Position numbers and translations under genes: made by a program. The notes under the pieces are model-generated. The model was given only the letters and a program-made list of their open reading frames with translations, was not told where the DNA came from and made no database searches. Below, in pieces: positions 9,369 through 43,700 of a DNA stretch of 64,000 nucleotides. Origin of the DNA: Bispira polyomma. Lineage: Eukaryota. Each line of letters begins with the position of its first letter. Positions within the stretch are counted from its first letter, which is position 1. The stretch is from positions 107,384,001 to 107,448,000 of the forward strand of contig OZ287748.1 in NCBI GenBank assembly GCA_965649765.1, in the 5' to 3' direction.

Positions 9369-9374
9369 TTTATT
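9369..9374 (-). promoter_or_regulatory. Candidate polyadenylation signal for the long-tail isoform
   Basis: AATAAA on the minus strand about 700 nt after the stop at 10073; the AT-rich context makes chance matches likely. Confidence 0.35.
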
Positions 9375-10072
9375 GATATTCACTTTACAATTAAAGAAGT
9401 AAATAATTTAATAAATATTTTATACAAACATGCACTATATATCCATTGCTTGCAGTACTGATCACAAAATTCACTTTTGTACAGAAAACTAAAACAACCC
9501 TTATGGTGACAATAGATTTGAGATACTTTTGCCAAAAATTGTACATATTTATGGATTATAATTAAGAAAGTTTTCAGTTCGGGGAGTTTAGAAGATTTGA
9601 AAAAGGTAAAAAAATCTGCAAGTGATGTTCTTTTTCCAGCCCATATGTAAATAACTTTAGAATATTGGAACTAAGTGTATTATATATGGGACTAATGTAG
9701 TAGAAAAATGGGATTATATAAAATAGCTTACAAGGATAACACATTTCTGGAACTATTAACTATAGAATACAAAATATACAAATCTAAAAGTTTCACTTAG
9801 CATGCTTAAGATACATTATTTGGTGCTAAAATTGATGACGTGATCTTATTTTAACAGGTTTACTACATAATACACTTTGTAGACCAGAAGCATGCTTGCA
9901 TACTTGTTTGTTACTATTCCTGGTAGCGTGTATTGCACTTAACAATGTCTTATACCTAAAAGTTATCTAAAATCATTTAATAAAGTCCTGTTGCTTCCAT
10001 TGATGACAGAGTAGGTTCTAATTGATGAGGTGACTGTATTCCCCCTCTCTGCCACTCTACACCATGCACCCT

Positions 10073-10751
10073 TTATCTGTACCCTTCTTCCACAGCAATC
10101 TTCAGCTCCTCGTCTTCATTATCTCCTACAGGCATCACTGTGATCTCTCCAAAGGCGCTTACATTCCTTCTCAGGGTAGATGGGGTTGCTGGTGCAGTGC
10201 CCACCTCGGAACTACTCACAACAGAGATCCTGCGGTCACCTGACCTCAGTGACTGGCTGTCTGAAGTGTATCCACGGTTCTGGTTGGCCATACGCCTGGT
10301 GGCTGTGACTGCAGAGATACGCCTGGCCATGGAGACGCGCCTAGCACCATAGGGGTCCTCATGGGCCAGCAAGTGGCCATGTTTGAGGTACTTCCTGTCA
10401 GCGGAGAGCCTGTCATCATCCATGGAAGAGTCGATCAGATCTTGCTCCTCGGCAGAGAGTAGAGCACTGTCAATAGACTGAACTTCCTGCTCATTGAGTC
10501 GTGTGACACGTGGTAAGTCCTCCAGACTGTAGGCATCCCGCAGGTGTTGTTGACTGGCGGCTTCACTACTCACATACTGGCGACTGGCACTTCTCTCCAT
10601 CTCACCACCCACATACTGGCGACTGCCCGAACGCTTCTCAATGTTGTACACATTGTGGATATTGGTGGTTTTGTTGATGTCAGAGCTTGACGACTCATGC
10701 TCCATCAAATTTTTTTCATAAAATTCTTTGTCCTCTTGACGCTTCCGACAC
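10073..10751 (-). CDS. Exon 38: terminal exon, long Ser/Arg-rich cytoplasmic tail
   Basis: tggcag|G TGT CGG AAG, phase 2, in frame with ORF 10073..10708; CRKRQEDKEFYEKNLMEHE...KIAVEEGYR-stop. Confidence 0.88.
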
Positions 10752-16700: not shown

Positions 16701-19700
16701 TATTTTCAGATGCAAAAAAAGCATCTTTTATACATAGTGCAAGCCTGATCGTGTTCTTTGCTATATATCTATATATTAGTACACATAGACAATGTATAAG
16801 TACATGGTAACATATCACAGTGTTATGTATGAGTACAATGTAAATAGTGGAGACAATTAGTTCACAGAAATAAAACACATGCAATATTACACGTAAAAAT
16901 AAAACATCAAGCAATCAAGAGGACTTTGGTTCAAATAATACTGATAAATCAAATTTCCAGTTCCAACTAAAAACACCAAGCCAGAAGATGGATAGTGACA
17001 AAAGGTCAGACAAGGTCGGAGACATTGTCGTATTTGATGTAACTGAGTTCCCGCTGATGTGCTCGCTCTAAGGCATGCTTGTACGCCATCTGTCTGTACA
17101 CACAAACAGAACATTACAAACTGGGCATGTGTGAGGACATCACTCAGTAGGTGTGTTTCAACCAGAGAGGCTAATACAGCATATGAGCCCAAACACAATA
17201 TATATATACATCAATTTGGTATGTATTACACTTCAATAGTAGATCAAATAAGCTGATGGTATTTGCCATATCCTACTTATGCATCACAAAAGTCCTGGAA
17301 TTGATGTTAGACACAGATAAAATAATTATGCATCTATCCTCAAAATAACACTTTGACAGAATTAGGATTTGACATGCACCCCTTCTTCTTTATACATGCT
17401 ATGCAACCCGTGTGCAAGATATAGACATTCATGCACTGTGCACTCACCTTAATATATTGCAGTAATACGATGAAATATATATCTCTTTTAAATATTCTAT
17501 ATTAAAGGTCTTATTGTCAGAGGCAACGCAATCTTTTACAAGACCCTTTGTCTACAATTTTACTAATCATAATATGTCGCTGGAAAGAAAAAATTGCAAT
17601 GTGTGTGTAAATATTTAGATATATATATAGATTTATAGTCTGATATCACACCTAGTGGGATCTCATTTGACTTTACAATGTACCCCAGCCTGGGTTCTTC
17701 CACTTCTCAACCAATTGTTCACTCTAAAACTCTCTCAGGGAGCATACTGGTCATGCAAATACGACGCAAACACTAACACCCATTAGCGGCCAGGTACAGG
17801 TGTCTAAATATTGGACAGAAAAAATCATTGTATTAACATTACATTAGAGATAAAACTAAAATGACCTGAATTTAAACCGAGTTAGGGTGAAATAGTAAAC
17901 CAGTGTAAAGTATTTACCTTCTGAGGCAGTAGAGCAAACAGCAGAGTAGCAGGCAGAGCAGAAGTAACAATGCCAGGATAGCAACAATCAGAAGGATGAT
18001 CCCTGGAATATACATGATATAGGAACAGTGATAAGGATGATCTTTGGAATATACAGGATATGGAAACAGTAATAAGGATGATTCCTGGCATATATAGGGT
18101 ATAGGAACAGTGATAAGGATGATCCTGGAATATATAGGATATGGGAACAGTAATGAGGATGATCCTTGGAATATACAGGATATAGAGACAGTGATAAAGA
18201 TGATCCTGGAATATATAGGGTATGGGAACAGTAATAAGGATGATCCTGGCATATATAATGTATAGGAACAGTGATAAAGATGATCCTGGAATATATAGGA
18301 TATGGGTTTGAATTTGGATATTTAACGTCCACTCTAGTACCTTTTAGTAGGTTATATTGGGACGGGTAGTTGGAAACGCTGGAGGAAACACTGCATACAG
18401 TCAGTCAAGGTTCTGCAGAGAAACCAGCGGCCCACAGTAAGGAACTACCACCTTTCCCACATAGGCATTGACGGGATTCGAACTCACGCCACCCAGAGGT
18501 GAGAGACCAGTGATTGTGAAGCGCAATGCTTGCTAACCACTAGGCCACCGCGGCCCCCATATAGGATATGGGAACAGTAATATGGATGATCCTTGGAATA
18601 TACAGGATATAGAAACAGTAATAAGGATAATTCCTGGCATATATAGGGTATAGGAACAGTGATAAGGATGATCCTGGAATATATAGAGTATAGGAACAGT
18701 GATAAGGATGATCCTAGAATATATAGGATATGGGAACAGTGATAATGATGATTCCTTGAATATATAGGGTATAGGAAAAGTGATAAGGATGATCCTGGAA
18801 TATACAGGATAAGGAAACAGTGATAAGGATGATTCCTGGAATAGATAGGATATAGGAACAGTGATAACAATAATCCTGGAATATATAGGATATAGGAATA
18901 ATAATAAGGATGATTCCTGAAACATACAGGATATAGACTAAATAAAGTGAGTTCTTTCTGACAAATACAGGACATAAAACTAGTGATAAGATGGATAACC
19001 CAGTAATATTTAGTTTGTATACTGTCTACAAACAGATGTTCACCCAAAGTCAACATTACCACAAGTGGCAGTTTTGGTGGTTTTTTCAGTTTTTATTATA
19101 ATATTACAATTATAAACATGCATTTACATCACAACATTTCCTTTCTAACATAAAAATTCCAAAACAACACAAAATAAAATATATATATATTTAAAAATAG
19201 GTTACAGACCTGTAGATATTTGAATACTTTTGTACACACCCACATATAATACACATAAAATATATGCTCTTGATTATATCAATTACAATAACAAATTAAG
19301 AAAACATTACTTACATAGAGGGAATCCTTCAGCGGCAACAACTGGACCACCAATTCCACCAGCAAGTACTGTAAGCATAAAGTCACACATGATATCCTAA
19401 TTGTGGTCTGAATAAAACATAAACAAGTGCGGTTATAGACCCCAAAAAAGCGGGTTGCGCAATTGGTATCAGGGATAGAGTCCAGCAACAAATTTCAAGT
19501 TTATTATTTTGTAGCGGCCATTTTGTTTTTTGGAATGGGCCCAAATACAATTCCAACCAAGCTATTGACATGATACACCTCAACAACAAATTTTGGTGAT
19601 GATAGCAATACTTTTTCTTTAAATGTCTGCAAACCATTTTCAAGAAGGCATTTTTCATAATAGGCCCAAATACAATCCCAACCAAGCTATTGACATCATA

Positions 19701-22700
19701 CTTCTCCACAACAAATTTGGTAATGATAGCTGCAATACTTTTTCCATTAAATGTCCGGAAACCGTTTTCAAAAAGGCGGCCGTGGCAGCCATTTTGTTTT
19801 TCGGAATAGGCCTAAATATAATCTGAACCAAGCTTTTGAAATGATACACCTTCACAACAAATTTGATAATGATAGCTGCAATACTTTTTCTTTAAATGTC
19901 CGGAAAACGTTTTCAAGAAAGCGGCCGTGGCTGCCATCTTGTTTTTCGGAATGGGCCTAAATATAATCCCAACCAAGCGTTTGACATGATATACCTCCAC
20001 AACAAATTTGGTAATGATAGCTGCAATACTTTTCCTTTAAATGTCCGGAAACAGTTTTCAAGAAGGCGGCCGTGGCGACCATCTTATTTTTCGGAATAGG
20101 CCCATATACAATTCCAACAAAGCGATTGATATGATGCACCTTCACAACAAATTTGGTGATGATACCTCAAATAGTTTTCCTTTAAATGTCCGGAAACCTA
20201 AATGTTGATGGATGGATAGACGTTGGACATATTAATCTCAGGCGCATTGGTTACAACGCAACCCGCCCAAAAACTGAATGGTCTGTTAAAAGACACCCAT
20301 TCAATGAATGAAGTAATGGTAGTTATATAAAGAGATGTCAGTGTATTGCAGCATTATTAAACAAGGAAAATGTATGTGACTTAAGAATGGGTTTTAACAA
20401 TTACCACAGGTAGAGTTGACTGCAGTGAAATCTTCATTACAAACACAGTAACCATCGACACAGGAAGAATCCTCAGAAACACATCTGTCTGAACCACTGC
20501 AAGCACCGTCTAGTGGTACAAGTTGATCTACAGTCAGACAAATACAATGTCTCACATTAATGAAACTTATATATTATACTACTGAACAAGGATTGTTGCC
20601 CCTTAGAATCCGCTAGTATGGAGTGTAAGCGCCAATACAGAATTATGACAGAGTACAAGTGTATAAAGTGACACATGTCCCACAGATTATCAAAGAGAAC
20701 ACAGTTATACACATTAAAGCTTCAGTACCTATAGATGCCCTTGAAGAGAGTGACAAGCAGAAGGAGATTATATATATTATGTTATATTTCTACGTTCTAC
20801 ATATCAAAACAAACGCCAGTTTACCATTGATAAAGTTTTGAATAAACATTACTTTAAGTATACCATAAATTAAGTTACTTTACAGGTAAGGTTACCTAAA
20901 AACACTAGGGTCACCTTAACTTGAGTTTAATTTAACCAGATATGACCAGTTTTTAAAATTATGCCCCTGAAGGTGTCCCTAACCGTTATTTTTCAAGTTT
21001 GCTACAATGATAGTGGTTGTTAGAGGGTTCAGAGGAGCCTAATGAAAGGCTAGTAGGTAACCAGATTGTTTGGGTAAAGCTGTCAACACCTTGGAAGATT
21101 AATAGATAATAACATGTGTTTGGGGTCAAAGGGTCCTGAGACCTAGTTACAAAATATGTAGGGAAAGCTTCCAGTTCTAAAGAAGTAGTCATTGTTAACA
21201 GTACTACAATATATAATAGAAAATGAAATAAAATAATAAGAACTCTCTTGTGTTATATTAATTAATTCAAAACAACAAACATGAACCTGGTGTCCGAAAA
21301 GGCAACTATATCTAAGACCATGCTTTGGAGTATTAACTATGTTATACTATGACATTACGATATTGGTTCAGATATGTATGTAACCATATAAATCTATGTA
21401 TTGTATATTTTTAACACGCCTTATTGATGCTAGGTATCTCCTAAGGCGCAACATCAGAATCAATCAGCCAATAGAAAAATCGATAAACCATAGCCAGGTT
21501 GTAAGGATGGATGCGTCAGCACCCAGGAAGAAGACTGAGAACGATAGGCGAGGCTAAAGAGATTGGTTTTGAGTTTTTCCTAAATCCCAGGGCGGCGACT
21601 GAGAAGGCTCTAGATCCGACTCTCTTGGTGGGTTTTTTAGAGGAAACAGAGACTCTCTTTTCCCCTTTAAGGTTGCTGAGGGAGTTTTGTAGCAAGGTAG
21701 TGAGGCTGTTGAAAGACAACAGCTTTAAAGGTAGTTACATGCATTTTAAACAGGATTCGATAGTGAATTGAAGGCCAATGGAGTTGCTTGAAGTATGGAG
21801 TTACATCAGTACGGATACCCAAATGAAAGATGACTCTACACAGATAATTTTAAATAGACTGCAAGTTGTTTATATGGGACCTATTACCTCCAAATAGAAG
21901 ATAATTACAATAGTCAAGGCAACTACCCACAAGACCGTTGGCCACAGTGATAGCAGTATCTAGTGACAGAAAATTTCTCATTCTTTTGAGGTCCCGAATG
22001 TGACAGTAGCAGGAGCGACGGATCCTGTTAATGTGAGTATAGTGACACTTAGGTTTTGACCTGTTCTGGAGGCGTAATCTCATTGCCCAATAGTGTGATT
22101 GGGAAAAAGTGATCTTATACACTGTGTTTCTTGTTGCCAATGAGGATGAATTCCGTTTTATCTGGGTTTTAATTTCAGTTTGGAGTAGTTCATTCACTCC
22201 TGAACTGAGGAGAGACAGTTGGCAAGTAAGTTAAGGTTGTTTCCGGCATTATGAGGGTTAAGTGAGAGATTTGAGTGTCATATGGAGTTACTTTAAAGCT
22301 TAAGTTAAACCAGTGGTAGTAACCTAGTTATTTATTTAATAGGATATTAATGGCTTGAAAAATTAATTATAACAGTAACAAAAGAAAATAATTATGTGCA
22401 AATCTATTATCCTATTAAAAGCACAACATCACTACTGTTACTCCCATGTAGTGCTAACTTTCCACAGGGGGGTACAATAAAGCATCCATTAGACTTACGA
22501 CAGTAGCCCTGGTCATATAGAAAGCCATCCTCACAGTCACAATAGCCCATAATACACATTCCATACAAGTAGTTACACTCAAAGTTATTGGTACATGGTT
22601 CTCTACCAATAATATCAGGACCTCCCAACTGTACTGTATAAAGCACAAATATAGAAAGCCTATTAGTGAAATGATGATGTACAGATTCCTGCATGCATAT

Positions 22701-25700
22701 GGGTAAAATATTATGACTGTCATACAGAGATCAAATATTACTCCAACAAGGTAAGCAGCTATTACATGTGACTTTGCAAATAATGTAATTATACGTTATT
22801 TTATTTTAACCATACAAGTTGTGTAATTGGACTGATTACCGAAATCTACATTATGTGTCATTTATGTAACGCTTAGCACTGGTTCTTTCACTGGTTTACC
22901 ATGCTATAATTAAACTAACTTACCACATATCCTGTCCACTTGTTTGAAACCAAGTTTACAAAAACACGTTCCGTTATGACATTCTGAGTTCAGTGTTATA
23001 CAGCCACCATCGCGCAGACATGGTGTACTAACTGTACCACGTAATACTGAAATATGGCACATAATTGTCAACCCTTTACTATATATATACAATGTAATAC
23101 TGATATCAGACACTGTTACTGTACCACATAGAAATATAGCATTGTTAAAGGTCTCTTCAATGTATCATTATAATTTTTGCTAACTTGCTATATTTGTACT
23201 GGAAACCCTGTGAGAACCCATGTAATTACAGAGTTGCTTTATTAACTTTTAATACTTTTGCTATTGCCTTAAATTCAAGATAATGGAGACAGCTAGCTGT
23301 TAACCTGTTGTACCCAATTATTACCATGTCACACAGACATCCGTCAAGTAGACTTTGCAAACAATTGCTTTTCTGTAAAAACAAAGTCTCTTAAACACTA
23401 CGTGCTATGCATTATGTATTTTATTTCAACCTGTCACACATTCATAAGGCAGACTTACCACACTGGTTTCCTGTGACAGTAAAGTCTCCATTACATTGGC
23501 AAATGCCTGGAGAGCCGCGGCACTGGGCATTGACATCAGCACATATATCACCATAGAAACAACGATCTCCAAGGGAAACTTTGGGAACTGTGTTTAATGA
23601 CAATAACAGCATACATGAATCAAATGTATCAACAGTTTACATCTTTTTCATAAACAGCCAGTTAATGCTATATATTTAATTGAACCATGTCACAACATTG
23701 GAAAAAGAGTATTAAACACTTACTTTATTAACTTTGTACACTTACCACATTCAGCTCCTCTAAGAAAATAGCCTGCCAGACACACACAGATTTCGTTATC
23801 ACAACTTGCCCAGGGATCCTCACAGATGGAAGCACTCGAACATGTACCACCCACCCCAATTTTCTCCACTGTATGAAATATGCAAAACGTAAGCATGTAT
23901 TATGTTTATAAGATATTTTGCTTTAATTTCGCACCAAAATTGATTCTGTAGCTAATTCAGCTAATTTTTAAAGGATTAATACTACATAGTTCTGCCCTTC
24001 AAATGTGGCAAAGAACTTGTTACTGAAAGATAAACAAAGTGTGTTAGATTTTTACAAAAGACCCAACAATGAATGCACTGCTCCCAAATGGAGTTATTTA
24101 TATAGTTTTGCTGGGGCTCCCGTGGCCTTGTAGTTACCATAAAGTGTTGGTTTTATAATAACTGGCTTCTTAGCTATGTGAATGTGGGTTCAACTCCATC
24201 AAGTGGGGCAGTTTGTCAGGTATTTGGTGTAGGTCAGTGGGTCAAAGTGCTTCAGCACTGGTTTCTTCCATCACTAATAAATCTGGCCATTGGGATATGA
24301 ACTATTGAAAGCTTTGTAGAACCCAACTTAATTCAAGTTCATGTTCTTTTTTTTTGGTATCAGGACAGATACAACCATTTTTTGCGATCATAAATCATAT
24401 TTGGTTAAGCCTTAGTTGTTGACTTCGGCCCATTTTATCAAGTATGGTTTTGAGATACTGACTACTTTTTAACCTAGCACCTTTGAAATTTGTTATAATA
24501 TAAAATAACCACTAAAAAGTTCAATAATAATAACAATAAAAAAGATTATGTTGTTTACTAACCACACATATAGTCTAGTGGGAAGTGGCTGACGTCACAC
24601 ACACACACTCCTCCAACACATTGGGCATGGCTGTCTGCACAGATATCACTTAACTCACACGACTCTCCCAGACCAACTTTTAACACTGCAACAACAGACA
24701 AAAACACTTTTATATATCAAACCATAATGACCTGCTTACAATCACCTCCCATATCAACACATGAGTGGTTACACAAGATTTCCAAAATAAATTTAATTTA
24801 TTTTTACTTTAAATATGGTGGTAAAGTATATCTTGAGGAACCTCTCTAATTAAGTCATCGATGTAATTATCCTGAGATTAAGCATTTTCATTATGCATAA
24901 ATAACACATCATGCAGCATCAACAAATGGCAGAACACGTCCATCATGAGCGCGTTCTGCCAGGAATTATATCATCGATGTAATAATCCAAAGATTGAAGG
25001 TTTACATTATGCGTAAATATGCTTAAGTGGAAGAATATATCCATAGCTAGAGACTTAATGTTCTGCCAGGAAATAAATCAGCTAATATATAGTTCCTATA
25101 CATGTAAAATCTTGGAATAAAAACAGGTGACCACTGTAATTTAATCAGTGTGTAAATGGCTGTATATCTGGCATTAACTGCAGCACTAGATGTTTTCTTC
25201 AGGTTTCATATAGAGTTGTACACCTACCACATGTGAGATCCTCCTCATAGTATTGTTGTCTACACACACACAGACCACCAGGTCCACACACTAAACTCTC
25301 TAATACACATGAACCATCAGCTAAACATACTCCATAGAGTTGGCCAGGGGACACATCGGGTGGTGAGGAGCGAGGCTCTGCAATTACGAATGATGTATTC
25401 AATTGTATGAATGTAGAAAACTTTGTGATAGCTAGGGTTAAGAAATTTATACAAAATGTAAGACGTTTAATTTTACGATTAACCACATGTGAGGCGACAC
25501 TATGGCGACACTTATCACACAAATATTCTGTTACACCTCACACACTTCCCTGTTACCATGGACACTCCACTATTACTATAGTGACAAGATGCACTGCACT
25601 TTGGTAAGACTTACCACACACACTTCCCTGTTGCTGATAACCCTGTTTACAACGACATTGTCCATTCTGACAGTGGGTGTAGAGTGAGCTACAGTACGAC

Positions 25701-28700
25701 TCTGTATCACAAGGGTCACCCAGGGTCACTTCACCTACTGAAAGTACAGACATACTCAGGTTCAATCTAGTATCTTCCAAATGAGAGTTTTAATGATGTG
25801 AATAGAGAGGAAGGTCTAACTTACAACAACGTCCAAATAGAGGCAGGTATCCCAGCAGACAAGTACAGTGCTGTTTCGTGGGATCACACCATGAGTAGTC
25901 ATCTCTACAGATGTCATCAATGTGGCAGGCTGCACCCAGAGAGAGCATACCCACTGAAAGAAATATTAAAAACAATATAAAGTGTCTCTGAAATACCAAC
26001 TGAAATAAAAAGAATTACATTATAAGGTCTCGATTACAGACTGAAATATATACATAAACATTAAAACGGTGTTCCATGATATACCCATTCAAAGAAATAC
26101 AAATATACAGCCACGCTAAAATATATATATTTAATAGACTATATCAGTGTCCCTTATATACATACTGGCATGTAGACAATATTGAGTACAACTGGGATAT
26201 CTTCTAAAATGTGAACAGGATCAGATGGTGATGTAACAGATATATCTCAAAAATACATGTAACATTCTAAATAAACACTGGTACTGAAAGCACTGAACAA
26301 TATTATACAACGTGCAGTCAAGACTATCATAGTCTCTGAAATGTACTACCAGAGTACAGAGTCACCTAGACTAAGGAGGTATATACCTTTGCACTATAAG
26401 ACAGGTTGCTGGATTGGATGTGGTATATAATTTCAGCTATATGATATCAGTTCCAGATTTTCGAAACTAAAGATTAACATAGAAGTTTATCTCTCAAACT
26501 ACTACTTACCACATATGCCATTCTTGTAAAAGAATCCTTCTTGACACAGACAGAATCCATTGTAACAGTGAGCATTGACTGTCTGACAGTGTGTACCAAA
26601 GAGACATGGGGCATTGTAGAGGCCAAAGCCAACTGGAAGAGACAATAAGGCAATATGAAAATACAGTGTACAGGCCAGAACTGGAATAAACAAGGAATCA
26701 AGTGACATTCAAGTATAGTGAAGCAGGCAAGTACGTGGAATAGACAAAGAATCAAGTGATATTCAAGTATAGTGAAGCGGGCAAGTAGGTGGAATAGACA
26801 AGGAATCAAGTGATATTCAAGTAGAATAAATGGGGAAACCAAGTGGAACAGACTTGGAAAACAAGTGACATTAAAATATAGTGTATAGGCCAAAACTGGA
26901 ATAGACAGGGAAACAAGTGACATTAGCGTAGAGTGAAGGGGGCAAGCAAGTGGAATAGACAAACAGTGATATTAACCTTAATTATAGAGATCAACCCCCA
27001 AATGGAATAGAAAAATAATACAAGTGATATGTACTGTTTAGAACATATTTTGGTGGGGACTATAGGACTTTAGGAACAGCCACAGTTAGGATAGTGGCCT
27101 GGGGGTCACTTGGCCCCAAAGCCAAGGGTGTTTTTTTAATTGAGTTTTACAAATTTTACAAAAACGTTTTTCATTTTTAAATAGAGAAAAATATTTTCAT
27201 TTTTTTTTCAAATCTCTTTTCAATGGCGTTAATTATGGCTAGTTCTTACCTAAGTGATGATCTTTTTTAGGACACTACCTAAAATAACTGCCATTTAAAT
27301 TTTCTATAGTACCCTCTCCTGTTAAAATGATCTCAATTGGAATAGAACAGGTCATGCAACTTTTAAGCCAATACATTCTTGAGATTCAGAGGTATAACAT
27401 TAAACTATAGTGTTAGGAACACAAGTCATGTCTACATATTAGCTAGACAAACTTTTTGCACTGTTTTTGCACCAACCTGCAGTAAAATATGTAAAAAGGT
27501 TTTTCAGCTTTATTAAGTTTGAATTTAGTTGTGTTTTACATCGCCTTTAACAGCTCAGGCCAGTTCACGACAGGCAGATCAAATAATGAAAGAAACCAGC
27601 AAGTACCAGCAAGTACAAACTTTCCCACCTAATGGGGCTAACAGGATTCAAACACACATTGGTGAGAGGCCAGTAATTGTGAAGCTAACACTTATAGCAC
27701 TAGGTCAATGTTAAAAGTATAAAAAGTAGCTCTACTAAAGTATGTCCATACAGTGACACTAACTATAAAGCATTTTCACTGGAATGCCTTTTTACTACAC
27801 AAATATGTCAGATAAGGATGATGTACTCACCACACACGTCCTGCTGACCAAAGTATCCTGACTGACAGACACAGGCCCCGCCCCTACACACAGCATTGTT
27901 GTCCCGACAATGGTCCCCGTTAGTACAGGTATGGTCTAACTTCACCTTCATCACTGGTATACAGGTGTACAGAGAGGGAGCAGAGTGAGCAAAGTGAAAT
28001 ACAACAGGCGATATCATTACAAGAATAGCCTTTTAGAAATGCAGCTGGGTCAAAGTCGCTTTATGTAAGTCTATCTTTTGTGGGTCTATTCCGGTTCTGA
28101 GTGACATTCCGGGCTTTAATAGTAACCATTTCGCTTAGCGATTTGACCTACGTTCTAATAAGGTCAGCTATGACGAGTTACCAGACATGGGAGTCCCAGA
28201 AGTAAAAAAGGAATGTTAGCTTTTGCAACATATGAGGGAAATATAAAAATCATACATTACAGACAAATATAATATTAACCACAATAGAACAAGATATATG
28301 TTTTCATTCATATTATCAATAAATCTACACTACATGGTTCATCTTAGACCTGTCATACAAGATAGCGTCCCCCAGCTAACAATACACTCAAAGGTCAAAA
28401 AGAAGGAAGGACATGTAGGTATTGCAAGTGATTTTTTTTTAAATTGTGATATTGTGGAGAATTACAAATAAACTACACAGGTGTTTGGAATACTGGTCCG
28501 GCCATCAAACCATTCAACAGATATTGAATAGTGTAAAATCTGAATTTCTCCAAAGTGTTCTAGTTTAGGTTTTTGTAACATAATGTACATGGGTCTGCTG
28601 TTCCAACTAGTATTTAAAAAGCCTCCACTAGTGAACACTCACCGGACACAGACACAGAGTATTGACCATAAAGATGTGTTCAATGTTCAGAGGTACAGAA

Positions 28701-31700
28701 CAATTAACAGAACAAAGAAAAAGTGTTCACTATTGGGATGTGTTATTGGGATGTGTTATTGGGATGTGTTCACTATTGGGAGGTGTTCACTGTGGGGATG
28801 TGTTCACTATCGGGAAGTGTTCACTGTGGGGATGTGTTCACTATCGGGAGGTGTTCACTATGGGGATGTGTTCACTGTGGGGATGTGTTCACTATCGGGA
28901 GGTGTTCACTATGGGGAGGTGTTCACTGTGGAGATGTGTTCACTATTGGGAGGTGTTCACTATGGGGATGTGTTCACTATCGGGATGTGTTCACTATGAA
29001 TGTGTTAACTACGGGGAGGTGTTCACTATTGGAATGTGTTTACTATGGGGAGGTGTTCACTATTGGGATGTGTTCATTATGGGGATGTGGTCACTGTGGG
29101 GAGGTGTTCACTATGTGTATGTGTTTACTATGGGGATGGGTTCACTATGGGGAGGTGTTTACCATTGGGATGTGTTCACTATGGGGATGTGTTCACTATG
29201 GAAATGTGTTAACTATGGGGAGGTGTTCAATATTGAGATGTGTTGACTATGGGGATGTGTTCACTATGGAGATGTGTTCACTATGGGGAGGTGCTCACTA
29301 TGGGGATCTGTTCACTATTGGGACGTGTTCACAATGGGGATGTATTCACTATTTGGATATGTTAACTATTGGGAGGTGTTCACTATTGAGATGTGTTCAC
29401 TATTAGAATGTGTTCACTATAGGGATGGGTTCACTATGGGGAAGTGTTCACTATGGGGATGTGTTCACTTTGGAGATGTGTTCACCATGGGGAGGTGTTC
29501 ACTATCAGAGGTTTACTGTAGTTATAGAACATTCCTGGCACACTATTGTTGGTAGTTACATTTATACATATAATACGATCAATAAAGTTGACCAATTTAC
29601 CTGCAGAGAATCTATTGATCAAAACAGTTCAGGTAAGGATAAGACATACATAAGTTTGTTAGTTAATTATACTTAAGGGAGTAATAGTGAAAATTGTTAT
29701 CCAGCCGTGAGGGTTGCATCTTCATTTTATTTTTTGTCATGTGATCTGGTCTTGAACAATCAGAAAATCAGGATATCATTGTAGTATGCAAGGTCTAGGT
29801 GTGTATAAAACACACGTCATCCTATATAAGCATGCTGTTACACATATTCTCACTATCTGACTTCACACGTCATCCATTATAAGCCAGTTATTACACCTAT
29901 GTTTACTATCTGACTTCACACGTCATCCTATATAAGCATGCTGTTACACATATTCTCACTATCTGACTTCACACGTCATCCATTATAAGCCAGTTATTAC
30001 ACCTATGTTTACTATCTGACTTCACACGTCATCCAATATAAGCCAGTTATTACACCTATGTTTACTATCTGACTTCACACGTCATCCTTTATAAGCCAGT
30101 TATTACACTGGTTTAATTACCAACTCACCACAAACCTCATCCTTTACAAAGTAGTTCTGTGGACAAACACAAACACCGGACACACATATGGCGTTGTCAG
30201 CAGAACACACAGCACCGGGCTGGCAGGGAGCATAGATTGAACCCCGACTCTTACTAGAGATACACCTAAAATATTACAGGTATAACATTGTAGTATGTAA
30301 ACAATGTATGAACTTAGGACGGTAAAGTGACCAGTAGTTGTGTGATATTAGAGATAAATACATATTACATGTACAGCATTGCAGTAAGTAAACAATGTAT
30401 GAACTTAGGACGGTGAAGTGACCAGTAGTTGTGTGATATTAGAGATAAATACATATTACATGTACAGCATTGCAGTAAGTAAACAATGTATGAACTTAGA
30501 ATGGTGAAGTGACCAGTAGTTGTGTGATATTAGAGATAAATACATATTACATGTACAGCATTGCAGTAAGTAAACAATGTATGAACTTAGAACGGTGAAG
30601 TGACCAGTAGTTGTGTGATATTAGAGATAAATACATATTACATGTACAGCATTGCAGTAAGGAAACAATGTATGAACTTAGGACGGTGAAGTGACCAGTA
30701 GTTGTGTGATATTAGAGATAAATTTGAATTTGAATTTGGATATTTAACGTCCACTCTAGTACCTTTTAGTAGGTTATATTGGGACGGGTAGTTGGAAACG
30801 CTGGAGGAAACACTGCATACAGTCGGTCAAGGTTCTGCAGAGAAACCAGCGGCCCACAGTAAGGAACTACCACCTTTCCCACATAGGCATCGACGGGATT
30901 CGAACTCACGCCGCCCAGAGGTGAGAGACCAGTGATTGTGAAGCGCAATGCTTGCTAACCACTAGGCCACCGCGGCCCTATTAGAGATAAATACATATTA
31001 CATGTACAGCATTGCACTAAGAAAACAATGTATAAACTTAGAATGGTGAAGTGACCAGTAGTTGTGTGATATTAGAGATAAATACATATTACATGTACAG
31101 CATTGCAGTAAGGAAACAATGTATGAACTTAGAACGGTGAAGTGACCAGTAGTTGTGTGATATTAGAGATAAATACATATTACATGTACAGCATTGCAGT
31201 AAGTAAACAATGTATGAACTTAGGACGGTGAAGTGACCAGTAGTTGTGTGATATTAGAGATAAATACATATTACATGTACAGCATTGCAGTATGTGAACA
31301 ATGTATGAACTTAGAACGGTGAAGTGACCAGTAGTTGTGTGATATTAGAGATAAATACATATTACATGTACAGCATTGCAGTAAGTAAACAATGTATGAA
31401 CTTAGAACGGTGAAGTGACCAGTAGTTGTGTGATATTAGAGATAAATACATATTACATGTACAGCATTGCAGTAAGTAAACAATGTATGAACTTAGAACG
31501 GTGAAGTGACCAGTAGTTGTGTGATATTAGAGATAAATACATATTACATGTATAGCATTGCAGTAAGTAAACAATGTATGAACTTAGGACGGTGAAGTGA
31601 CCAGTAGTTGTGTGATATTAGAGATAAATACATATTACATGTACAGCATTGCAGTAAGGAAACAATGTATGAACTTAGGACGGTGAAGTGACCAGTAGTT

Positions 31701-34700
31701 GTGTGATATTAGAGATAAATACATATTACATGTACAGCATTGCAGTAAGGAAACAATGTATGAACTTAGAACGGTGAAGTGACCAGTAGTTGTGTGATAT
31801 TAGAGATAAATACATATTACATGTACAGCATTGCAGTAAGTAAACAATGTATGAACTTAGAACGGTGAAGTGACCAGTAGTTGTGTGATATTAGAGATAA
31901 ATACATATTACATGTATAGCATTGCAGTAAGTAAACAATGTATGAACTTAGGACGGTGAAGTGACCAGTAGTTGTGTGATATTAGAGATAAATACATATT
32001 ACATGTACAGCATTGCAGTAAGGAAACAATGTATGAACTTAGGACGGTGAAGTGACCAGTAGTTGTGTGATATTAGAGATAAATACATATTACATGTACA
32101 GCATTGCAGTAAGGAAACAATGTATGAACTTAGAACGGTGAAGTGACCAGTAGTTGTGTGATATTAGAGATAAATACATATTACATGTATAGCATTGCAG
32201 TAAGTAAACAATGTATGAACTTAGGACGGTGAAGTGACCAGTAGTTGTGTGATATTAGAGATAAATACATATTACATGTACAGCATTGCAGTAAGGAAAC
32301 AATGTATGAACTTAGGACGGTGAAGTGACCAGTAGTTGTGTGATATTAGAGATAAATACATATTACATGTACAGCATTGCAGTAAGGAAACAATGTATGA
32401 ACTTAGGACGGTGAAGTGACCAGTAGTTGTGTGATATTAGAGATAAATACATATTACATGTACAGCATTGCAGTATGTGAACAATATGATCAAAATTTCT
32501 ACCTGTTGTTAGGTAAGTTGTGTAGATTACTAACCAACTGGTAAGGAGGTTCAAACTCTGTGTGTCCATTACTAACCTGTTACTGTGTACATTACTAATC
32601 TGTTACTGTATACATTAATAACATATTAATGTCTACGTTACTAACATGTTATTGTATACATTACTGATATGTTGCTGTGTACATTATTTACCCGTTACTA
32701 TGTTCATTACTAACGTGTTGCAATGCCCATTACTTACCTGTTACTGTATACATTACTAACATATTATTGTGTACATTACCAACATGTTACTGTATACATT
32801 ACTGATATGTTACTGTATACATTACTAACCTGTTGCAATGTCCATTACTAACCTGTTACTGCATGCATTACTAACCTGTTACAATATTCATTACTAACGT
32901 GTTACTGTATACATTACTAACATGTTACTGTGTACATTACTAACCTGTTACTATGTCCATTACTATCTGCTTACTGTGTACATTACTAACCTGTTACTAT
33001 GTACATCACTAACATGTTACTGTATACATTACTATCATGTTACTGTGTACATTATTTATCTGTTACTATGTCCATCCTGTTACTCTGTCTACTACTGACT
33101 TGTTACTTTTTACATTAATAACCTGTTACTGTGTACATTACTAACCTGTTACCATGTATATTACTGACCTGTTACTGAGTACATTACTAATTTGTTACAC
33201 TGTCTACATTACTAACCTGTTACAGTGTATATTACTAACATGTTACTGTGTACATTACTAACACTGTATACATGACTCACCTGTTACTGAGTAGGTTAAA
33301 GTTCTCCCTACACTCACACATACTGTCACTACACCAGGCGTTGTTGTCCACACACACGTCTCTCTCACTACATGTCTTTCCAACACCTATCATCCCCACA
33401 CACAGACCGCCAACATCAAAGTAACCCTGACGACACTGACACTGTCCCAGCCAGCAGATGGCGTTAGGGTCCGAGCACTGGTCACCTGTAAAACAGGTGG
33501 CCCACAGTCCCAGGTAGGGCACACAGAAGCCTTGTTGGAGGTAGAAGCCTGGTTTACAGGAGCAGATACCAGACTGACAGTGGGTGTGGGGGTTGAGGCA
33601 GATACTGGTCTCTAGACAGGGAGTGCGTAACATGCCACGGGGGTAACACTGACCCTGGTATCTGTAATACTGAGAGCCACACATACACTGACCCCGACTA
33701 CACCCAGAAAACCGGTCCAGACACACGTCACCCACTGTACAGCCAGAGCCCAGGGATAACTTGGGTGTACATAATCCTGACTTAAGGTAGAAGTGGCTGT
33801 GGCAGACACAGATACCATTATGACAGTGAGCATTGGGGTCATCACAGGTGAGGCCATTGACACACAAAGCAAAGACCAGGCCAGCACCGACTGAGAGGGC
33901 ACAGTTACCATGATGTGATATAAACTCTCCTCTACATAGACAGCTACCGTTATGACAGGAAGCATTAGGGTCACTGCACACATCATCCTTCTCACACGGG
34001 TAATGGAGCTCTATGGCCGGTGTACACGCGGCATTCTTGATAAAGTAACCTTGTTTACACAGACACAGTCCTCTTTCACACATCGTGTTTGTATCTGTAC
34101 AACCGTCATTTCCTACAGCCGCCAGTTTACAAGGCGATTCCAGCTTACCACGCGCAGTACATTGGCTTAATCGGGGGTAATAGTCCTGGCGACAGACACA
34201 GTAACCATGGAGACAAGCGGCATACTCATTAGAACACTCGTCATCCATGCTACACACCTGTTCTAGCGTCTTTTTACGTAGACATAAAGCTCGGGATGGA
34301 AAGTAAGATGGTCGACAGTTACACACTGAATTCTGACAGCTCATGCTACTGCTACTACAGACAGATCCAGGGAGACACTGGGAGCCTAGGGATCCAGGTT
34401 TGACTGAAATACAAACATGAAATAATGTGAGATCCCCTGGATGTAAAACATTAAATATTGTAAGATCCCCTCGATGTAAAACATTAAATATTGTGAGATC
34501 CCCTGGATGCAAAACATTAAATAATGTGAGATCCCCTGGATGTAAAACATTAAATATTGTAAGATCCCCTGGATGTTAAACATTAAATATTGTGATCTCT
34601 CTTGGTATAACAATGATATAAGTGAAAATGATTTTTATGTACCCAAATAGCATCAGGTTGGAATACTATTGATAGCTGACATAGTAGATAATGAAGGAGA

Positions 34701-37700
34701 AGTACTTCCATTCAATGAAATTAAAAAAAAAAATCTATAATATCCCATCATCTTCTGTATTTGACTATTATAGAGTCAAAGGGCCGGTAAGCAAATTTAA
34801 TACTCAGAGCAACAGTTACAGAAACTTTCAGCAATTGGGCCCCCAATACTTTCTTTTCACATGAGAATATTAAAAAGGTCAACTAAAGGAGCAAGAGACA
34901 TGTATGTTGCTTTGAATAAAGTTCCTGATCTTTCTTTGTGTCTAAGTGAGGAGAATTGGAAACAAATATTTAAGGCTTGCTTTCCAACTGTCAGTGATAA
35001 TACTCTGAAATGGTTCCAGTATTAAGTAATTCATAGGATCCTCGGAACTAAAAAACTAAGACTAAGAATGTAATTAGAGAACTGTGATAGATGTAGACTG
35101 TATAATACTATATAGAGGAATCTCTAATGCATCTGTTTTACAACTGCGAAATTACCCAGATTTTCTTGAAAAAGGTTACTGATTGGGTAAAAGGTATAAT
35201 AAATTTAATATTGCCAGTAAATTCATTAAATTTATTTTAGGATATCAAAGCAATGATCAAAACTATATTTCTATCAATATCATTTTCTTTCTGACGAAGC
35301 AGTATATTTTTTCATGTGCTTATTCAAATCGTCTTCCAAGTCTAACAGAGTTTAAATTTAGGCCAATTGAAACCTTTAAAGAACAGGAACTGTTGTCAAA
35401 AATAAACTTGTGTGAAGAAAAATTTAATTCTTTCTTTCAAAAACAGAAACTGCTCTATGAAACAAGTGACACTTATATAGTTATCTAATACAATTTTTTT
35501 CTTTTTCATTTATCCATTTTATAAATCACTAACTTTAGCTGGCATTACTGATGTATGAACATTGTATTTTTATATACTGTACAGAAATCTGATTTACATT
35601 CCAGGGATATACAACATAAAATATTGTGACATCCCCTGGATGTAAAACATTACATATTGTGAGATCCCAGGAATCTTAGGTACATATGAGGGATATACAA
35701 CATCACATAATGGAAGATCTCCAGGAATCTGACATTATCAAATAATGTAAGATCTCCAGGAATCTGAGTTACATCCGAAGGATATACATTATCAAATAAT
35801 GTATGATCTCCAGGAATCTGAGTTACACTGAAATGCAACATGAAATAACGCAAGATCCCAAGGAGCCAGATTTTACTGAATTTCAACACAAAACCAGGTG
35901 AAACCCGAGGAATATGCAATAGCCTAGGTAATGTAAGATCCTAGGTAGCTGGGTATGACTGAAATCTCACATAAATTCAGATCTCAGGGTTTTACGAAAA
36001 TACATCAAATAATGATCCTTTGAGATATGCAGCATCACATAATGTGAGATCCCCGTGATATATCACATCAAACAATGTGAGATCTCAGATATCTGGATTT
36101 GCCTGAACTACAAAATTAATTAATTAAATATCCTAGGAAGCCTGGTTTTACTGATTATATAAGAACAAGAGTCTGATCTAAGGGACCCTGGTTTTACTGA
36201 TTATACAAGAACAAAAGTCTGATCTAAGGAACCCTGGTTTTACTGATTATACAAGAACAAAAGTCTGATCTAAGGAACCCTGGTTTTACTGATTATACAA
36301 GAACAAAGGTCTGATCTAAGGAACCCTGGTTTTACTGCAATACAAGAACAAGAGTCTGATCTAAGGAACCCTGGTTTTACTGATTATACAAAAACAAGAG
36401 TCTGATCTGAGGAACCCTGGTTTTACTGATTATACAAAAACAAGAGTCTGATCTAAGGAACCCTGGTTTTACTGATTATACAAAAACAAGAGTCTGATCT
36501 AAGGAACCCTGGTTATACTGCAATACAAGAACAAGAGTCTGATCTAAGGAACCCTGGTTTTACTAAATATACATCAAATAATTTTGACTCATTGGAACAC
36601 ATCAAATAACTGTGACCTTTTGTTCTTTATTATCCACCTGTTGTTGGGAATTTATTATACACTCTATTGGTAACTTACCTCACACGTTGTCTGTTGGTAA
36701 CTTACCTCACACGTTGTCTGTCCGCTGGTAGCTTACCACGCATGTTATCTGTCTGCTGGTAACTTACCACACATGTTATCTGTCTGTTGGTAACTTACCA
36801 CACATGTTATCTGTCTGCTGGTAACTTACCACATATGTTATCTGTCTGTTGGTAACTTACCACACATGTTGTCTGCTGGTAACTTACCACACATGTTATC
36901 TGTCTGTTGGTAACTTACCACACATGTTATCTGTCTGCTGGTAACTTACCACACATGTTATCTGTCTGCTGGTAACTTACCACACATGTTATCTGTCTGT
37001 TGGTAACTTACCACACATGTTATCTGTCTGCTGGTAGCCGGGCTGACAACCACAAGAGCCGCTAGCACACACGGCATGACTGTCTAGACATTCGTCAGAA
37101 TCAGAGCAGGAGGCGCCAAGGAGTTGACGGCGTACACATACAGCAGATCTGAGAAACAAACACACAAAACACCAAATGTGATCAAACAGTAGACATACAC
37201 TGGATCACATACAGCGTAAACAGTAAACACTCAAAACACCATGTTATCAAACAGAAGACATACACTGGACCACATACAACGATTAACGTTTTGGATTTGT
37301 TGCGCCTTAGAATTTGTTGTACAAAGATTAAGCGCTATAAAAGTACGACTAGATTAGATTAGATTAGATTACAGAGTAAACAGTACACACAAGCGCTCAA
37401 ACCACCATGTGATAAAACAGTACACGGTGGTAATTAGTACAGAAAATACTCAGTACCTGGTCAAAAATAGTAAACATAAGTCTATTGAAGACGTTTATCA
37501 GATGTTTTTATACTATTCTATTCATTTACAGGGTTTACAACAAGACTTGTTTTATTATGAGCAACAATATGTGTCATTGGCTCAAACAAAGTCACGAGAT
37601 CAATCATGGTATAGCACCTGGTTAACCTTTTATACCTACTGTTTCTGCAGGATATTTACAACAGTATCCCTTTACCAACACCAGAATGTTATTTTTGTTT

Positions 37701-40700
37701 GCACAATGGAACATTTATACACAGTTTAACCCTACTTGTATAACAGGAGTTCAGGAGGTTTATAAACAGTGTCAACACAATATTCAGTTGGCCTCTGGTC
37801 AGGTGAAATTACTTAGGTGCTGTAAATAGGTGCTGTAAATATGCATACAATAACTGAGATGTATTTACCTCTCAAAGAAGGCGTTCCTGCACTGACACAA
37901 TCCCTGTACACACTTGGCGTTCCTGTCAGTACAGTACAGTCCATACATACAAGGTGCGTGCAGGTCTCCTTTGTTCAGACATGTGGTGAGGTCTGCGCTG
38001 TAGTATGAGGAGTGACATAGACACGTATTGTTAATACACACAGCATTCATATCCTCACACGTCCGTCTGACATCACAGGGAGAGTAAAGAGGCTGTCCCT
38101 GGTCCCCTGGGGCAGGAGTAGTACCAGGAAGTATGTCCCCAGGGACACACGTCTCACCCATGGCATGGAACCCAGTCCTACATACGCAGAGATTTAAGTC
38201 ACAAATCTGTAAGTTATCGATACATACATTGCCCTCTAAACAAGCTGCATGTAATAAGCCCTCAGATTGACAGGCCCCCGCCTTATCGGTGTAATAGCCA
38301 TTCTGACAGTTACAACTGCCTCTCTCACAGACACCATTCCTGTCCCTACACAGTTCACCAGAGGAACATGGCTCTCCTAGGGGAATACGTGGTACACACA
38401 CCAAGTTCTTATCAAAGTGGTGAGGGACACACTTACAGAGTCCATTGTTACAGAAGGTATTCTCTCCTAGACACACCTCATTGGGTAGACACTGACCATC
38501 TAACTGTCCCTGAGAGCCAGTACGTGTACACTGACCATCTAAGTTAGAGAAGTCATCTATACACAGACATAGACCTCGATGGCAGGTAGCGTATGGGTCC
38601 TGACACACATCTCTAGGTGTACACACCTTACCTAACGGAATCTTACTCTCACAAGTCTCACCCTTCACATAGGCCCCCTCATGACACACACAAAACGTAG
38701 CAGCACAGTAAGTAAACTCATCAACACACTGCTCTGACCTCGAGTCCTGGGGTAGACAAGGTGTATCGTAACGGCCCCTCTCTCGACACACTCCATCACG
38801 CTCAAAGAAGTTCTCCCGACACACGCAGATTCCGTACATGCAGATGGCATTAAAATCAGCACAGGACTCGCCCGGTAGACATGGTAAACCTAACTGACCC
38901 TGTCCCTTACAAATAGAGTCTTCTTGGAAGAAACTTGGGCGACACATACAGACGCTATCGCGCCCACATTCAGCGTTGTCATCAAAACAGACTTCTCCTC
39001 CAGAACAGGCGGCAAGCAGAGGGATTTTAGGGAGGCAGACTCCGGACTTTTCAAAATAAGCTGGCTGGCATTTACAGACACCTTGTGTACAGTAAGAATT
39101 GTCTGGTAAACAGGTGCCTTCAGGTAAACAGGCCGCATCTAGAGTACCACGGTCATCACCAGACACTACAATATATATGTAAACAATGTTAGTAAATATG
39201 AAATTATCACAGGAAGTGCAACAGGTATAAAGAAGTATTACATACAGTTAGCTAAACAGGGTCTTATTAGACAATAAAATAGACTTGCCATCCAGTAACA
39301 TGTATTGGAACTGTACAGAGTTGGAACTGGTTTGTTGACAAAAGAAATATTTTTCATTCATGAATGAAAAAATAAGATTACATTAACTCATTTTTAGTCT
39401 CCCAAATTCATACTTTACTTTTGGTTCTACAGTAATACTTATTATTATTTTTTTGTTTGTTATGAAACACTGATACACGCTTACACACAATGAGAAGGCC
39501 CTTATATAGACATATATATTGCTCCTACCACAAACGCCATGTGATGCGCTGTAACCTTGACGACACTGACATCTGGAGGCCACACACTCGGCCCTCTCAT
39601 CTAAACACTGGTCATCTGACCTACAGAGCTCACCAAGGTCACTGCGGGGAACTGTAGACACAGGAGGAGTAAGGTAATGATGAAACATGTAGTAAATAAC
39701 AGTAATAATGGTAAATATAAAATAGAACAAACCCTCAGAACTTCCAAATCAGAGGGTAGGCGAAGATAGGGTGTATATTTGAAAAGAGCACTGGAGTCAT
39801 TGATTGTTATCTCAAGGAATTTTAGGTTATACAGCACTGACAAAAGATAACAAGTCTGTATGTATCAAGCTGAATATGGAGGTTTCTTTATTACATAGCA
39901 GTATGGTATAACAGGGTGTTATGTCACTCTCTATATGGTAGTATGGTATAACAGGGTGTTATGTCATATTATATATGGTAGTGTGGTATAACAGGGTGTT
40001 ATGTCACTCTATATATGGTAGTAAATGTGTCATAATAACAGTGACACTCTGGTGACACAAATAATGCTACTTGTAAAATATATCAGTAAGCTGTCCACTT
40101 CCCCTGCTCGTGATGATATCAATGTACCACTCTATATGTATAGAAAGTAACCCTTCTGTTACCTGTGTATATCAATGTGATACTGTATGTGTATAGAAAG
40201 TAACTCATCTGTTACCAGTGTATATCAATGTGATACTGTATGTGTATAGAAAGTAACCCCTGTGTTACCAGTGTATATCAATGTGATACTGTATATGTAT
40301 AGAAAGTAACCTCTTTGTTACCAGTGTATATCAATGTGACACTGTATGTCTATAGAAAGTAACCCCTGTGTTACCAGTGTATATCAATGTGACACTGTAT
40401 GTGTATAGAAAGTAACCTCTCTGTCACCAGTGTATATCAATGTGACACTGTATATGTATAGAAAGTAACCCCTCTGTTACCCGTGTATATCAATGTGATA
40501 CTGTATGTGTCACCAGTGTATGTATGATTCTATGTACTAACCACATAGTCCTTCCTTGTCCACTGCCTGCTGAGAACACACACAAATCTCTTGGCTACAC
40601 ACTGTGTTAGGGTCTGTACAGAGTCTACCAGCAAGACACGGGGTGTTAACACGACCCTTGCGTACTGAAACATAAAATAACGGGTTTTTACATGACCCGT

Positions 40701-43700
40701 ACATACTGTTATACAAAACATGTGGTGTTAACACGACCCTTGAGTACTGAAACATAAAATATGGGGTGTTAACACAAACCTTACATATTGAAACACAAAA
40801 CATGGGATATTAACAAGACCCGATGCCTTATGATCGAAACAAATTGCACATAATGCTTGGGGTGTTCTGGCAGAGATAAGGGCAGTGGTGGCATAGTGGT
40901 TGGAAGTGTCTACTTTACAGTATGCACTGCTTCCTAGTATGCACTTCTTTCCCCCTATCAGTAAAACTGCCCTTCATGATATGACCTGAACAATATGTTG
41001 ACATTAAAGCCCACTCAACCAATCAATCGATTATTTCTCTGGCTGACAAAATAAGACCTGTGCTGATGACACTGATGTAAAACCCAACTAAATTCTGAAT
41101 GAAATGGAACAAGGATTTGGAAGAAATTCACAAAACATTGTATGGCAATAATAGCGGTGTCAAAGTTACAAATACAATCAAACAAAAAGTTGCACATACA
41201 TTTTATCAAATGTTTATGAAATTCAAAAACACTTTTGCACTTTACGTTTCCAAGACAAAAAAATATTGTAAACAGTTAAAAAAAATGATTGCAACAATAA
41301 AAGTAGGGGAACACCCAGTACATCATGTTAAATATAATCAAAGAAACTTTGACCAGGAATAGTATGAACTTTTGGCTTTCTGACTGCCTGGAAGGAAGAA
41401 AACAGAACTGTAAAGGCAATTTGTGGTTGTTGTGGTATAAAAGGTTCTGTTAATTTGAGTGAAAAATCAGATGGCAAGTCACACAAAAGATGTTACACAA
41501 ACAACAAAACAATTGTTGTGTTTTAAAAGTCGGAGCAACAGAGAAAAATGCCTTCAACACATTTAAAACATGAATCAAGTAAAACACTGGAACAACAATG
41601 ATGTGTCAACAAACAGTGTGGGTATCTCCACTTGTATTGTTGTCCCAAACAATAGACTACATATCAAGTTAGATTCAATAAATATTGGATAACAACAGCA
41701 CACGAAGACCAAAACCATGTGGTGAATGTAGGGTGATAGTTAACCTTTCATGGTCACATGATTTCAATTCAGTGAATAGCATAGTTAATACACGGGTGGT
41801 AAGAATTCTGGCTGGTACGAATTCTGGACAATAAATAAAGTTATATGGAAATACCAGAAAATACACAGAAACTACCATGTCAAACTGAATATTTTGTAAC
41901 TTACTTTGACACTACTGAATGTCTTCTTACTAAAACAAGTGACAAAATATATAATAAATCATAATTTAAATGTATAGACACAGATACAAGTTCGTCCTAT
42001 ATATAGCATTTGCATATTGGTGTTTTGAGTACATCTACTTATTTGTTGTGGTGGCAAAGCAGTGACCTGATAAAATATTGTTTATTTTAGATTGAATTAA
42101 GAAAGTTATAGAAAAAAAATAATAATAACAGGAAATAAGATGAAGAAGCATACAGAAAAGCTATTTCTGCACATTGAATCACCAGGTGGCACTCAGCCTT
42201 GCACTTCCTACTAGGCACCAAACTGTCTAGAATTCATACCACTTGACTTGACATATAAACAAATTTAAAACCTTATTTTAAAGAATCTGTCAAAAGATGT
42301 TTCATTGATATTGATCTATGACAAGTGTTTCATGTATACCTATTTTAATACATTTTACTTTTAATTTTATCTTATGCAACATACTTAAATTTAAGTAAAA
42401 ACATCAAATTCTGTCCAGAATTCGTACCACCCGTGTAATGGTTTTAATGGCAGCCTCCCAGTGACCTGACTTTACCAACCGTTGACATCATTGTGGATGA
42501 AATAAACAACTCTTGTCCTAGAAAGTTGATCTCAAACATGCCTTCAGGAATATATTCACCAACCATCATGGCTACAACATTGTGGCCTTAAAATGATAAG
42601 AACACCTTTAGTTACCTGTCCTTGATGATGAGACATGAACACGGAATGCCAGTTTGTGGCAGCATGTGACAGACACAATTGTATGCATCATAATACAAAT
42701 ACGTTGGAAGGTGTACATAGCAAATTTTTTTCATTTCAATTCTGGTAAACACCTGTGCTATCTACCCTGAACACAAGTATAAATAGGTGTAAACATTTCC
42801 TCCAATATCCTCTGGTGTATCATCCCAACTAGTGGTTTTTCTATCAAATGTTGCCCCTATTTCTGTTTTTGTCTAACTAGATTCTGGCGTACAATCCACA
42901 ATTACATTAGTATTGTTCAACTCCTAGTTCTGAAAAAGTCAATATATGTCTAGTAACAGTGACAAAATGTATGTTTGCAAGTAAGGAAAAATATCCACAA
43001 CCAACAGTTCTCATAAAAGTGGCTTCAAAATTACTTCCTAAATATATATATATATCTCAAAGTAACACACTCTAGATCTGTCAAAGTACATAATCCATAA
43101 CTCTCACAGTACTTACAACATACTCCGTATCTCTCAAAGTACTGTTCAGTACATAAACAGGTTTGACCTTGACATTGTGCACTGTTGTCTGCACAGACAT
43201 CCCCGTCCTCACATCGAGCATTAAGTGGAAGTGTTGGTGCTGAAATATCGAGTGTCTTGTGAAATACCAGTATTTAACATGCACAAAACAACAAAATATC
43301 AAGTCAAGTCAGGTGTAACAGGGTATATGCTGAAGTTAACATTTCCTCAACACAAGTGCTATGACTAATCTGACAACAATCACTTTATTCATGAAACACC
43401 AGAAATAACTTTGTGATTTGAGTTATAACCTGACATACATTTAAGCGATGAAACTCCAATTTTGGTTTTTGTAGAAGTAGCTTTATGTCATGTGCTTATT
43501 TGAAACATGTAGTCTTACTACAATTGTGGCCTTTTCTCTGTGAGTTGACTTACACCTGACAGGAGAGTTTATTTGAGTTTATACACTTACTGCAGTGTTG
43601 GGTTTTATAGAAGTACCCGTATGTACACACACACTCCCTTCCTACACACTGGGCATTGGGGTCAGTACAGTGACCATCTGGTGAGCAGGGGTTGACCAGG

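Follow-up and report, generated by a model that had tools for sequence, protein, structure and literature searches.

Genes that switch cytoplasmic tails through alternative last exons are well known, Neuroglian and Draper being examples as the published accounts describe them. In Drosophila, the Neuroglian isoforms Nrg167 and Nrg180 share one ectodomain, and isoform-specific exons provide them with different cytoplasmic ends (PMC3627646). The Draper-II/Corkscrew pair, also from Drosophila, is an invertebrate precedent for an ITIM (reviewed in PMC9008705), and in nephrin YDxV motifs recruit Nck (PMC12159891).

The window described here, a stretch of 64,000 nucleotides, is occupied on its minus strand by one large gene for a giant membrane protein built of EB modules (PF01683). 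Positions 17093-17006 are probably an unannotated alternative last exon of this gene, which would belong to an unstudied family of EB receptors. To judge by analogy, the gene may work like the Neuroglian switch and recalls Draper-I and Draper-II, and it belongs to neither family.

As described for Neuroglian, one ectodomain could be joined to two cytoplasmic ends; in Neuroglian each end has a tyrosine motif and one has a PDZ-binding end. However, Neuroglian consists of Ig and FnIII domains with ankyrin-binding FIGQY motifs, whereas the host protein consists of about 70 EB modules, and the PDZ end is on the long form in Neuroglian, whereas the PDZ-like end is on the short form here. The two tails of the host gene have no significant similarity to each other, and the idea that one was duplicated from the other was rejected (alignment score 23, reached by 59% of shuffles). 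With Draper, the host gene shares a cysteine-rich repeat ectodomain and predicted isoforms that differ in the inner domain, one of which carries an ITIM in Draper. The repeats are EGF/Nimrod in Draper but EB here. Draper-I, as reviewed, carries an ITAM and an NPxY motif, both of which are absent from the long tail, and phosphatase binding has been shown for Draper-II but would be a prediction for the short tail. Nephrin resembles the short form in being a single-pass protein with YDxV in its tail, but it is described as having three such sites and the short tail has one.

The best homologue is GFS20515.1 of Elysia marginata, a protein of 3,748 aa automatically named 'multiple EGF-like domains protein 6'. 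Like the host protein it has dozens of EB modules (65 EB matches), one C-terminal transmembrane helix and a cytoplasmic tail, but the tail is of 99 aa and by eye unlike either host tail, and identity over the queried exon is 32%. The searches made found no function for the molluscan giant EB-repeat proteins, and no paper on such a gene was found in the literature open to non-subscribers, supplementary gene tables excluded. If real, the short exon is a correction to the gene model and offers a first way into EB-repeat membrane proteins, a large class that is unstudied. It would also place two unrelated tails on one ectodomain, where they are directly comparable for localisation and binding partners. 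Because tail switching is known from Neuroglian and Draper as described, specialists would see such an exon as useful but not as a surprise.

Architecture of the host gene

The gene model comprises 44 exons that run from 72782, beyond the end of the window, to 17918, the exit phase of each exon being the entry phase of the next. It contains at least 2,864 whole codons and 68 CxC cores, and at least two further EB exons, near 73096 and near 58990, lie outside it. The main parts are as follows.

20405..63793 in the window and on to at least 72782, minus strand: EB-module (PF01683) ectodomain exons, from the phase-consistent exon chain
19315..19368, minus strand: stalk exon of 54 nt, phase 1-1, from the exon chain
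17918..18002, minus strand: transmembrane exon, phase 1 in and phase 2 out, donor AG/GTAAAT

The two largest exons give hits to the Pfam EB family (PF01683) with E-values of 1e-46 and 3.5e-49, above the Pfam cut-off. The genome searched amounts to 1.04 Gb, with the window on a 108-Mb contig, and 30 of its 33 EB matches are inside the host gene. The transmembrane helix and the basic residues behind it suggest a type I topology; no 5' exon or N-terminal signal peptide was located upstream of 73096.

The gene is the genome's main EB array, with about 70 modules. Most of these occupy a 123-nt phase 1-1 exon each, and single modules could therefore be skipped in frame. Tandem partial copies of acceptor plus exon start precede two of the true exons on the minus strand, at 50134, 50017 and 49900 before 49783 and at 47689 and 47570 before 47457, and their acceptor scores are as high as those of true sites. 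Comparable acceptor-bearing repeats also stand in front of 63793 and 18002.

The best of 307 representative protein matches is 32% identical to the queried EB exon. Ten homologues were looked up, of which the eight named ones come from molluscs (Elysia, Mya, Sinanodonta, Octopus) and braconid wasps. No close homologue of the host protein was present in the protein libraries searched. Orthologues of the large EB exon, the long tail and the exon at 22633 were not found among proteins of up to 2,000 aa (weak negatives), the ESM Atlas gave no usable match for either tail, and metagenome contigs gave none to the long tail.

Acceptors behind the transmembrane exon

The donor of the transmembrane exon scores 4.5, within the donor range of this gene, and behind it lie two phase-2 acceptors, one at 17093 that opens 28 codons plus a junction Arg and one at 10751 that opens 226 aa. 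A sequence-only reading had proposed the first of these as a hidden alternative last exon. Its acceptor, TGTTCTGTTTGTGTGTACAG/A, is indeed found at 17094/17093 in phase 2, behind an intron of 824 nt as read directly, and the translation it had given, R-QMAYKHALERAHQRELSYIKYDNVSDLV-TGA, is correct, with the stop at 17008-17006.

17094..17116, minus strand: 3' splice site of the short exon, pyrimidine/GT tract plus CAG, acceptor score 5.0
17006..17093, minus strand: candidate proximal last exon, coding part (junction Arg, 28 codons, TGA), from codon scores
16637..17005, minus strand: putative AT-rich 3' UTR to the first AATAAA (16642-16637), weak, 17% by chance
10073..10751, minus strand: distal last exon, 226-aa acidic Ser/Arg-rich tail, from codon scores and phase 2

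Using a matrix trained on the gene's own 44 acceptors, the score of 5.0 at 17093 equals or exceeds that of 75% of the 44 true acceptors (leave-one-out). Among the 399 AGs between the transmembrane donor and 10751, the two strongest acceptors are 10751 and 17093, the latter ranking second of 399. The same two head the list when these AGs are ranked by codon score over frames of at least 15 codons, with 17093 in first place. The coincidence of acceptor strength and codon signal at 17093 is more than chance.

A different explanation is that the site is a pseudo-exon, rarely or never used, in which a chance phase-2 acceptor precedes either unique intronic DNA or the decayed remains of coding sequence of other origin. 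Acceptors as strong as 17093 are not rare, since 43 of 2,937 intronic AGs reach its score (0.8 per kb), and a phase match with the transmembrane donor occurs 1 in 3 times by chance. The tail's motifs are common as well. The AATAAA that had been pointed out after the short exon is there, 364 nt past the stop, but its value as evidence is at chance level, for 17% of 760 intron windows of 370 nt contain one. Against a pseudo-exon, the short exon stands at the top of two independent scores and is single-copy by depth and by two genome searches. Contigs of all three public runs, which behave as genomic DNA, cover it at single-copy depth. In each run they span 14944-17688 or beyond and are identical to the assembly, with no variant in the unique part, so the assembly at the short exon is not in doubt. 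No paralogue of either tail was found in genome searches, each matching itself only (the short exon both by DNA and by peptide). We regard the pseudo-exon as unlikely, and the codon statistics below bear on it further.

Short high-copy interspersed repeats occur in both tail introns (17650-17780 and 14930-15000), the summed contig depth at 17586-17807 being thousands of times the unique level, and a tandem array of about 40-nt units fills about 13160-14600.

No donor above -7 bits exists in the coding part of the short exon, so that the exon, if used, is terminal; in-frame use as a cassette was rejected for want of a usable internal donor. A tandem AG at 17089 scores 0.3, and its use would give a 7-residue tail. 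Predicted hairpins cover both acceptors (10716-10786 and 17058-17128, minus strand) and are more stable than those at all 44 constitutive acceptors in 70-nt windows. When the intron and exon halves were shuffled separately, the hairpin at 17093 gave p-values of 0.05-0.27 and that at 10751 was significant in one of three window sizes, and the hairpins were not relied on. Rfam had no matches in 9000-20000.

If the exon is real, its use would replace the 226-residue tail from 10751 by an inner tail of 29 residues. The proximal acceptor would be recognised together with a polyadenylation site near 16620, where the transcript would end; otherwise the transmembrane donor would skip 7.2 kb to the distal exon. 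Downstream of the latter are an ATTAAA at 9981 and an AATAAA at 9374. Read-through past its TAA (10072-9977, minus strand) was rejected, as the 31 further open codons score an intron-like -8.6. The description of the long tail as Ser/Arg-rich is fair, since its 225 residues include 30 Ser and 24 Arg. Three RRxS sites are present in it along with one EEQDLI dileucine-type pattern, and a pattern scan found no ITIM, ITAM, YxxPhi or NPxY despite nine tyrosines. The long tail may be a disordered region phosphorylated on Ser and Thr and controlled by Ser/Thr kinases.

Coding signal of the short exon

The 84 nt of the short exon have a GC content of 0.50, compared with 0.36 in introns and 0.49 in exons, which is distributed over the codon positions as 0.61 (GC1), 0.25 (GC2) and 0.64 (GC3), and they contain five CpGs, compared with 8 per kb in introns. 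The synonymous-codon score, which for this exon rests on 28 codons, is +8.3 bits in the predicted frame, whereas the other two frames score 0.6 and -3.2. With this first codon model, the score is matched by 0.2% of 1,470 stop-free intron blocks and by none of the 43 equally strong decoy acceptors, 20 of which have at least 20 open codons. Shuffling with base content fixed leaves p-values of 0.02-0.03 for the codon score and 0.001-0.005 for the excess of GC1 and GC3 over GC2. A second model was built from 2,885 codons of 30 SH2-domain loci elsewhere in the genome, three of which are mis-oriented and were kept in. It gives the short exon 9.6 bits, a value reached by none of the 1,470 intron blocks and enclosed by the range of the long tail (6.4-14.1 bits).

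The signal is also rare on a larger scale. When 204 kb were scanned on both strands and in three phases with the first model, four of 215 strong-acceptor frames reached the score of the short exon, namely the short exon itself, one EB exon and two exons of a neighbouring anoctamin gene that had no part in the training set of this model. One of these two is confirmed by Pfam; the other we take to be part of the anoctamin gene from its appearance and position. With the second model, the short exon ranks second of the 215.

The anoctamin gene, which lies upstream of the host gene, itself ends in two terminal exons of phase 0 arranged in tandem. They are homologous but differ in the C-termini they encode (59 and 74 codons), and they have the look of alternative last exons that arose by duplication.

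G000:C1:107487530 and C1:107485899 (L006:9530 and L006:7899), minus strand: anoctamin terminal exons, outside the window

Two observations speak for a pseudo-exon. The GC content of the 84 nt before the 17093 acceptor is already raised, at 0.44, compared with 0.34 before true exons. In a control on SH2 flanks, three of 41 strong-acceptor frames also pass the codon filter; one resembles a further SH2 exon and the other two are a single repeat-like site, which indicates that decayed coding repeats can mimic a coding signal. On the other side, the frame of the short exon is closed seven codons 5' of the acceptor and GC falls past the stop. The frame-specific codon signal survives the control for GC, and the CpGs have been retained. 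Codon statistics, acceptor rank, phase, single copy and the lack of an internal donor all support the alternative last exon that had been proposed, and we put the probability that 17093-17006 is a real, used exon of this kind at about 0.75.

Motifs and possible roles of the short tail

The IKYDNV, YDN and C-terminal DLV motifs attributed to the short tail are all present.

17021..17038, minus strand: IKYDNV, a single tyrosine site that fits four patterns (the ITIM consensus, YxN, YDxV, YxxPhi)
17009..17020, minus strand: SDLV, C-terminal class III PDZ-ligand pattern (D-x-hydrophobic), from the sequence

A class III PDZ ligand is (D/E)-x-hydrophobic at a free C-terminus, YxN is the Grb2 SH2 motif and YxxPhi is a sorting signal. 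Such patterns arise easily by chance. The ITIM pattern turns up in 129 of the 2,937 translations from decoy acceptors, in 3.6% of random 28-mers and, when the short-tail peptide is shuffled, in 12% of cases. A PDZ-type end of any class occurs in 11-13% of 28-mers and one of class III in about 3%, so the class III end stands as a pattern but is at chance level as evidence. An ITIM together with any PDZ end has a chance frequency of 0.5-1.3%, for patterns that were picked after seeing the sequence.

The sequence-only reading had noted that IKYDNV fits the ITIM consensus and had proposed a tyrosine-signalling short tail. The ITIM part of the proposed two-tail switch is poorly supported, while the part that concerns the terminal exons gains support. 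The ITIM consensus is given as S/I/V/LxYxxI/V/L, and PD-1 and BTLA are described as binding SHP1/2 best with both an ITIM and an ITSM (Xu et al., PMC8631942). According to the same source, SHP1 is recruited best when pY+1 is a medium non-polar residue and less efficiently when it is polar or charged. The short tail contains a single ITIM match, with no second ITIM and no ITSM, and the residue at pY+1 is Asp rather than a medium non-polar one, which by this account disfavours SHP1 binding. On its predicted sequence, the short tail thus departs from SHP-recruiting ITIM receptors, as they are described there, in the two features tested; the consensus is, moreover, common among decoys.

One reading nevertheless keeps the exon and takes IKYDNV as a true ITIM, by which the short isoform would recruit SHP2 and damp signalling, like Draper-II. 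The match to the published consensus, the SHP2 orthologue encoded in the genome and the Draper-II/Corkscrew precedent in an invertebrate (PMC9008705) all speak for it. The lone motif, where PD-1 and BTLA are described as using ITIM and ITSM bivalently, speaks against it, as do the Asp at pY+1 (the comparison data being for SHP1 and vertebrate receptors), the lack of an ITAM in the long tail for it to oppose, and a chance rate of 3.6%, or 12% for the composition of the short tail. We consider a true ITIM quite improbable.

YDNV suits Nck/Grb2 or YxxPhi sorting sites better than an SHP-type ITIM. No SH2 domain of Nck or Grb2 was recognised in the 37 translated of 38 SH2 matches, a lower-bound search. 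Of nine homologue tails, none has YDxV, one has the ITIM pattern and three have YxN.

Alternatively, the exon may be real and serve only to delete the long tail, so as to produce a decoy or adhesion form with almost no tail, or to change the 3' UTR, with the motifs incidental. That the motifs are at chance level is consistent with this, as is an Octopus EB-repeat membrane protein whose tail is of similar length and lacks ITIM and YxN. It is less readily reconciled with a single site that fits four tyrosine patterns and is followed by a hydrophobic C-terminus, or with the low joint frequency of an ITIM and any PDZ end, although that figure is qualified by the post hoc choice of patterns. We hold this to be rather unlikely. 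The readings considered here overlap in part, and the probabilities we attach to them are not meant to sum to 1.

We somewhat favour a real exon whose short tail has an adaptor, sorting or anchoring role. In this reading, the short tail would act through its single tyrosine site and its free C-terminus. YDNV would most likely be an adaptor or sorting site, docking Nck/Grb2-type SH2 domains if phosphorylated and serving as a YxxPhi endocytosis signal if not, with an inhibitory, SHP-recruiting ITIM role less likely. SDLV possibly anchors the short tail to a PDZ scaffold. The choice of tail would then set where the same ectodomain is located and how it is coupled to the cortex. A bolder version, which we think improbable, goes further. 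Here the choice of terminal exon would give the receptor, about 3,000 residues long, either a long tail under kinase control or a minimal one whose single tyrosine, as a phospho-switch, alternates between endocytosis and signalling through SH2 domains (SHP2/Nck/Grb2). One gene would then yield a paired receptor resembling Draper.

Some EB homologues (P0003, P0037 and P0088) have what we take by eye to be a tyrosine-phosphatase-like domain behind the transmembrane helix, which in other animals would couple EB ectodomains with tyrosine signalling.
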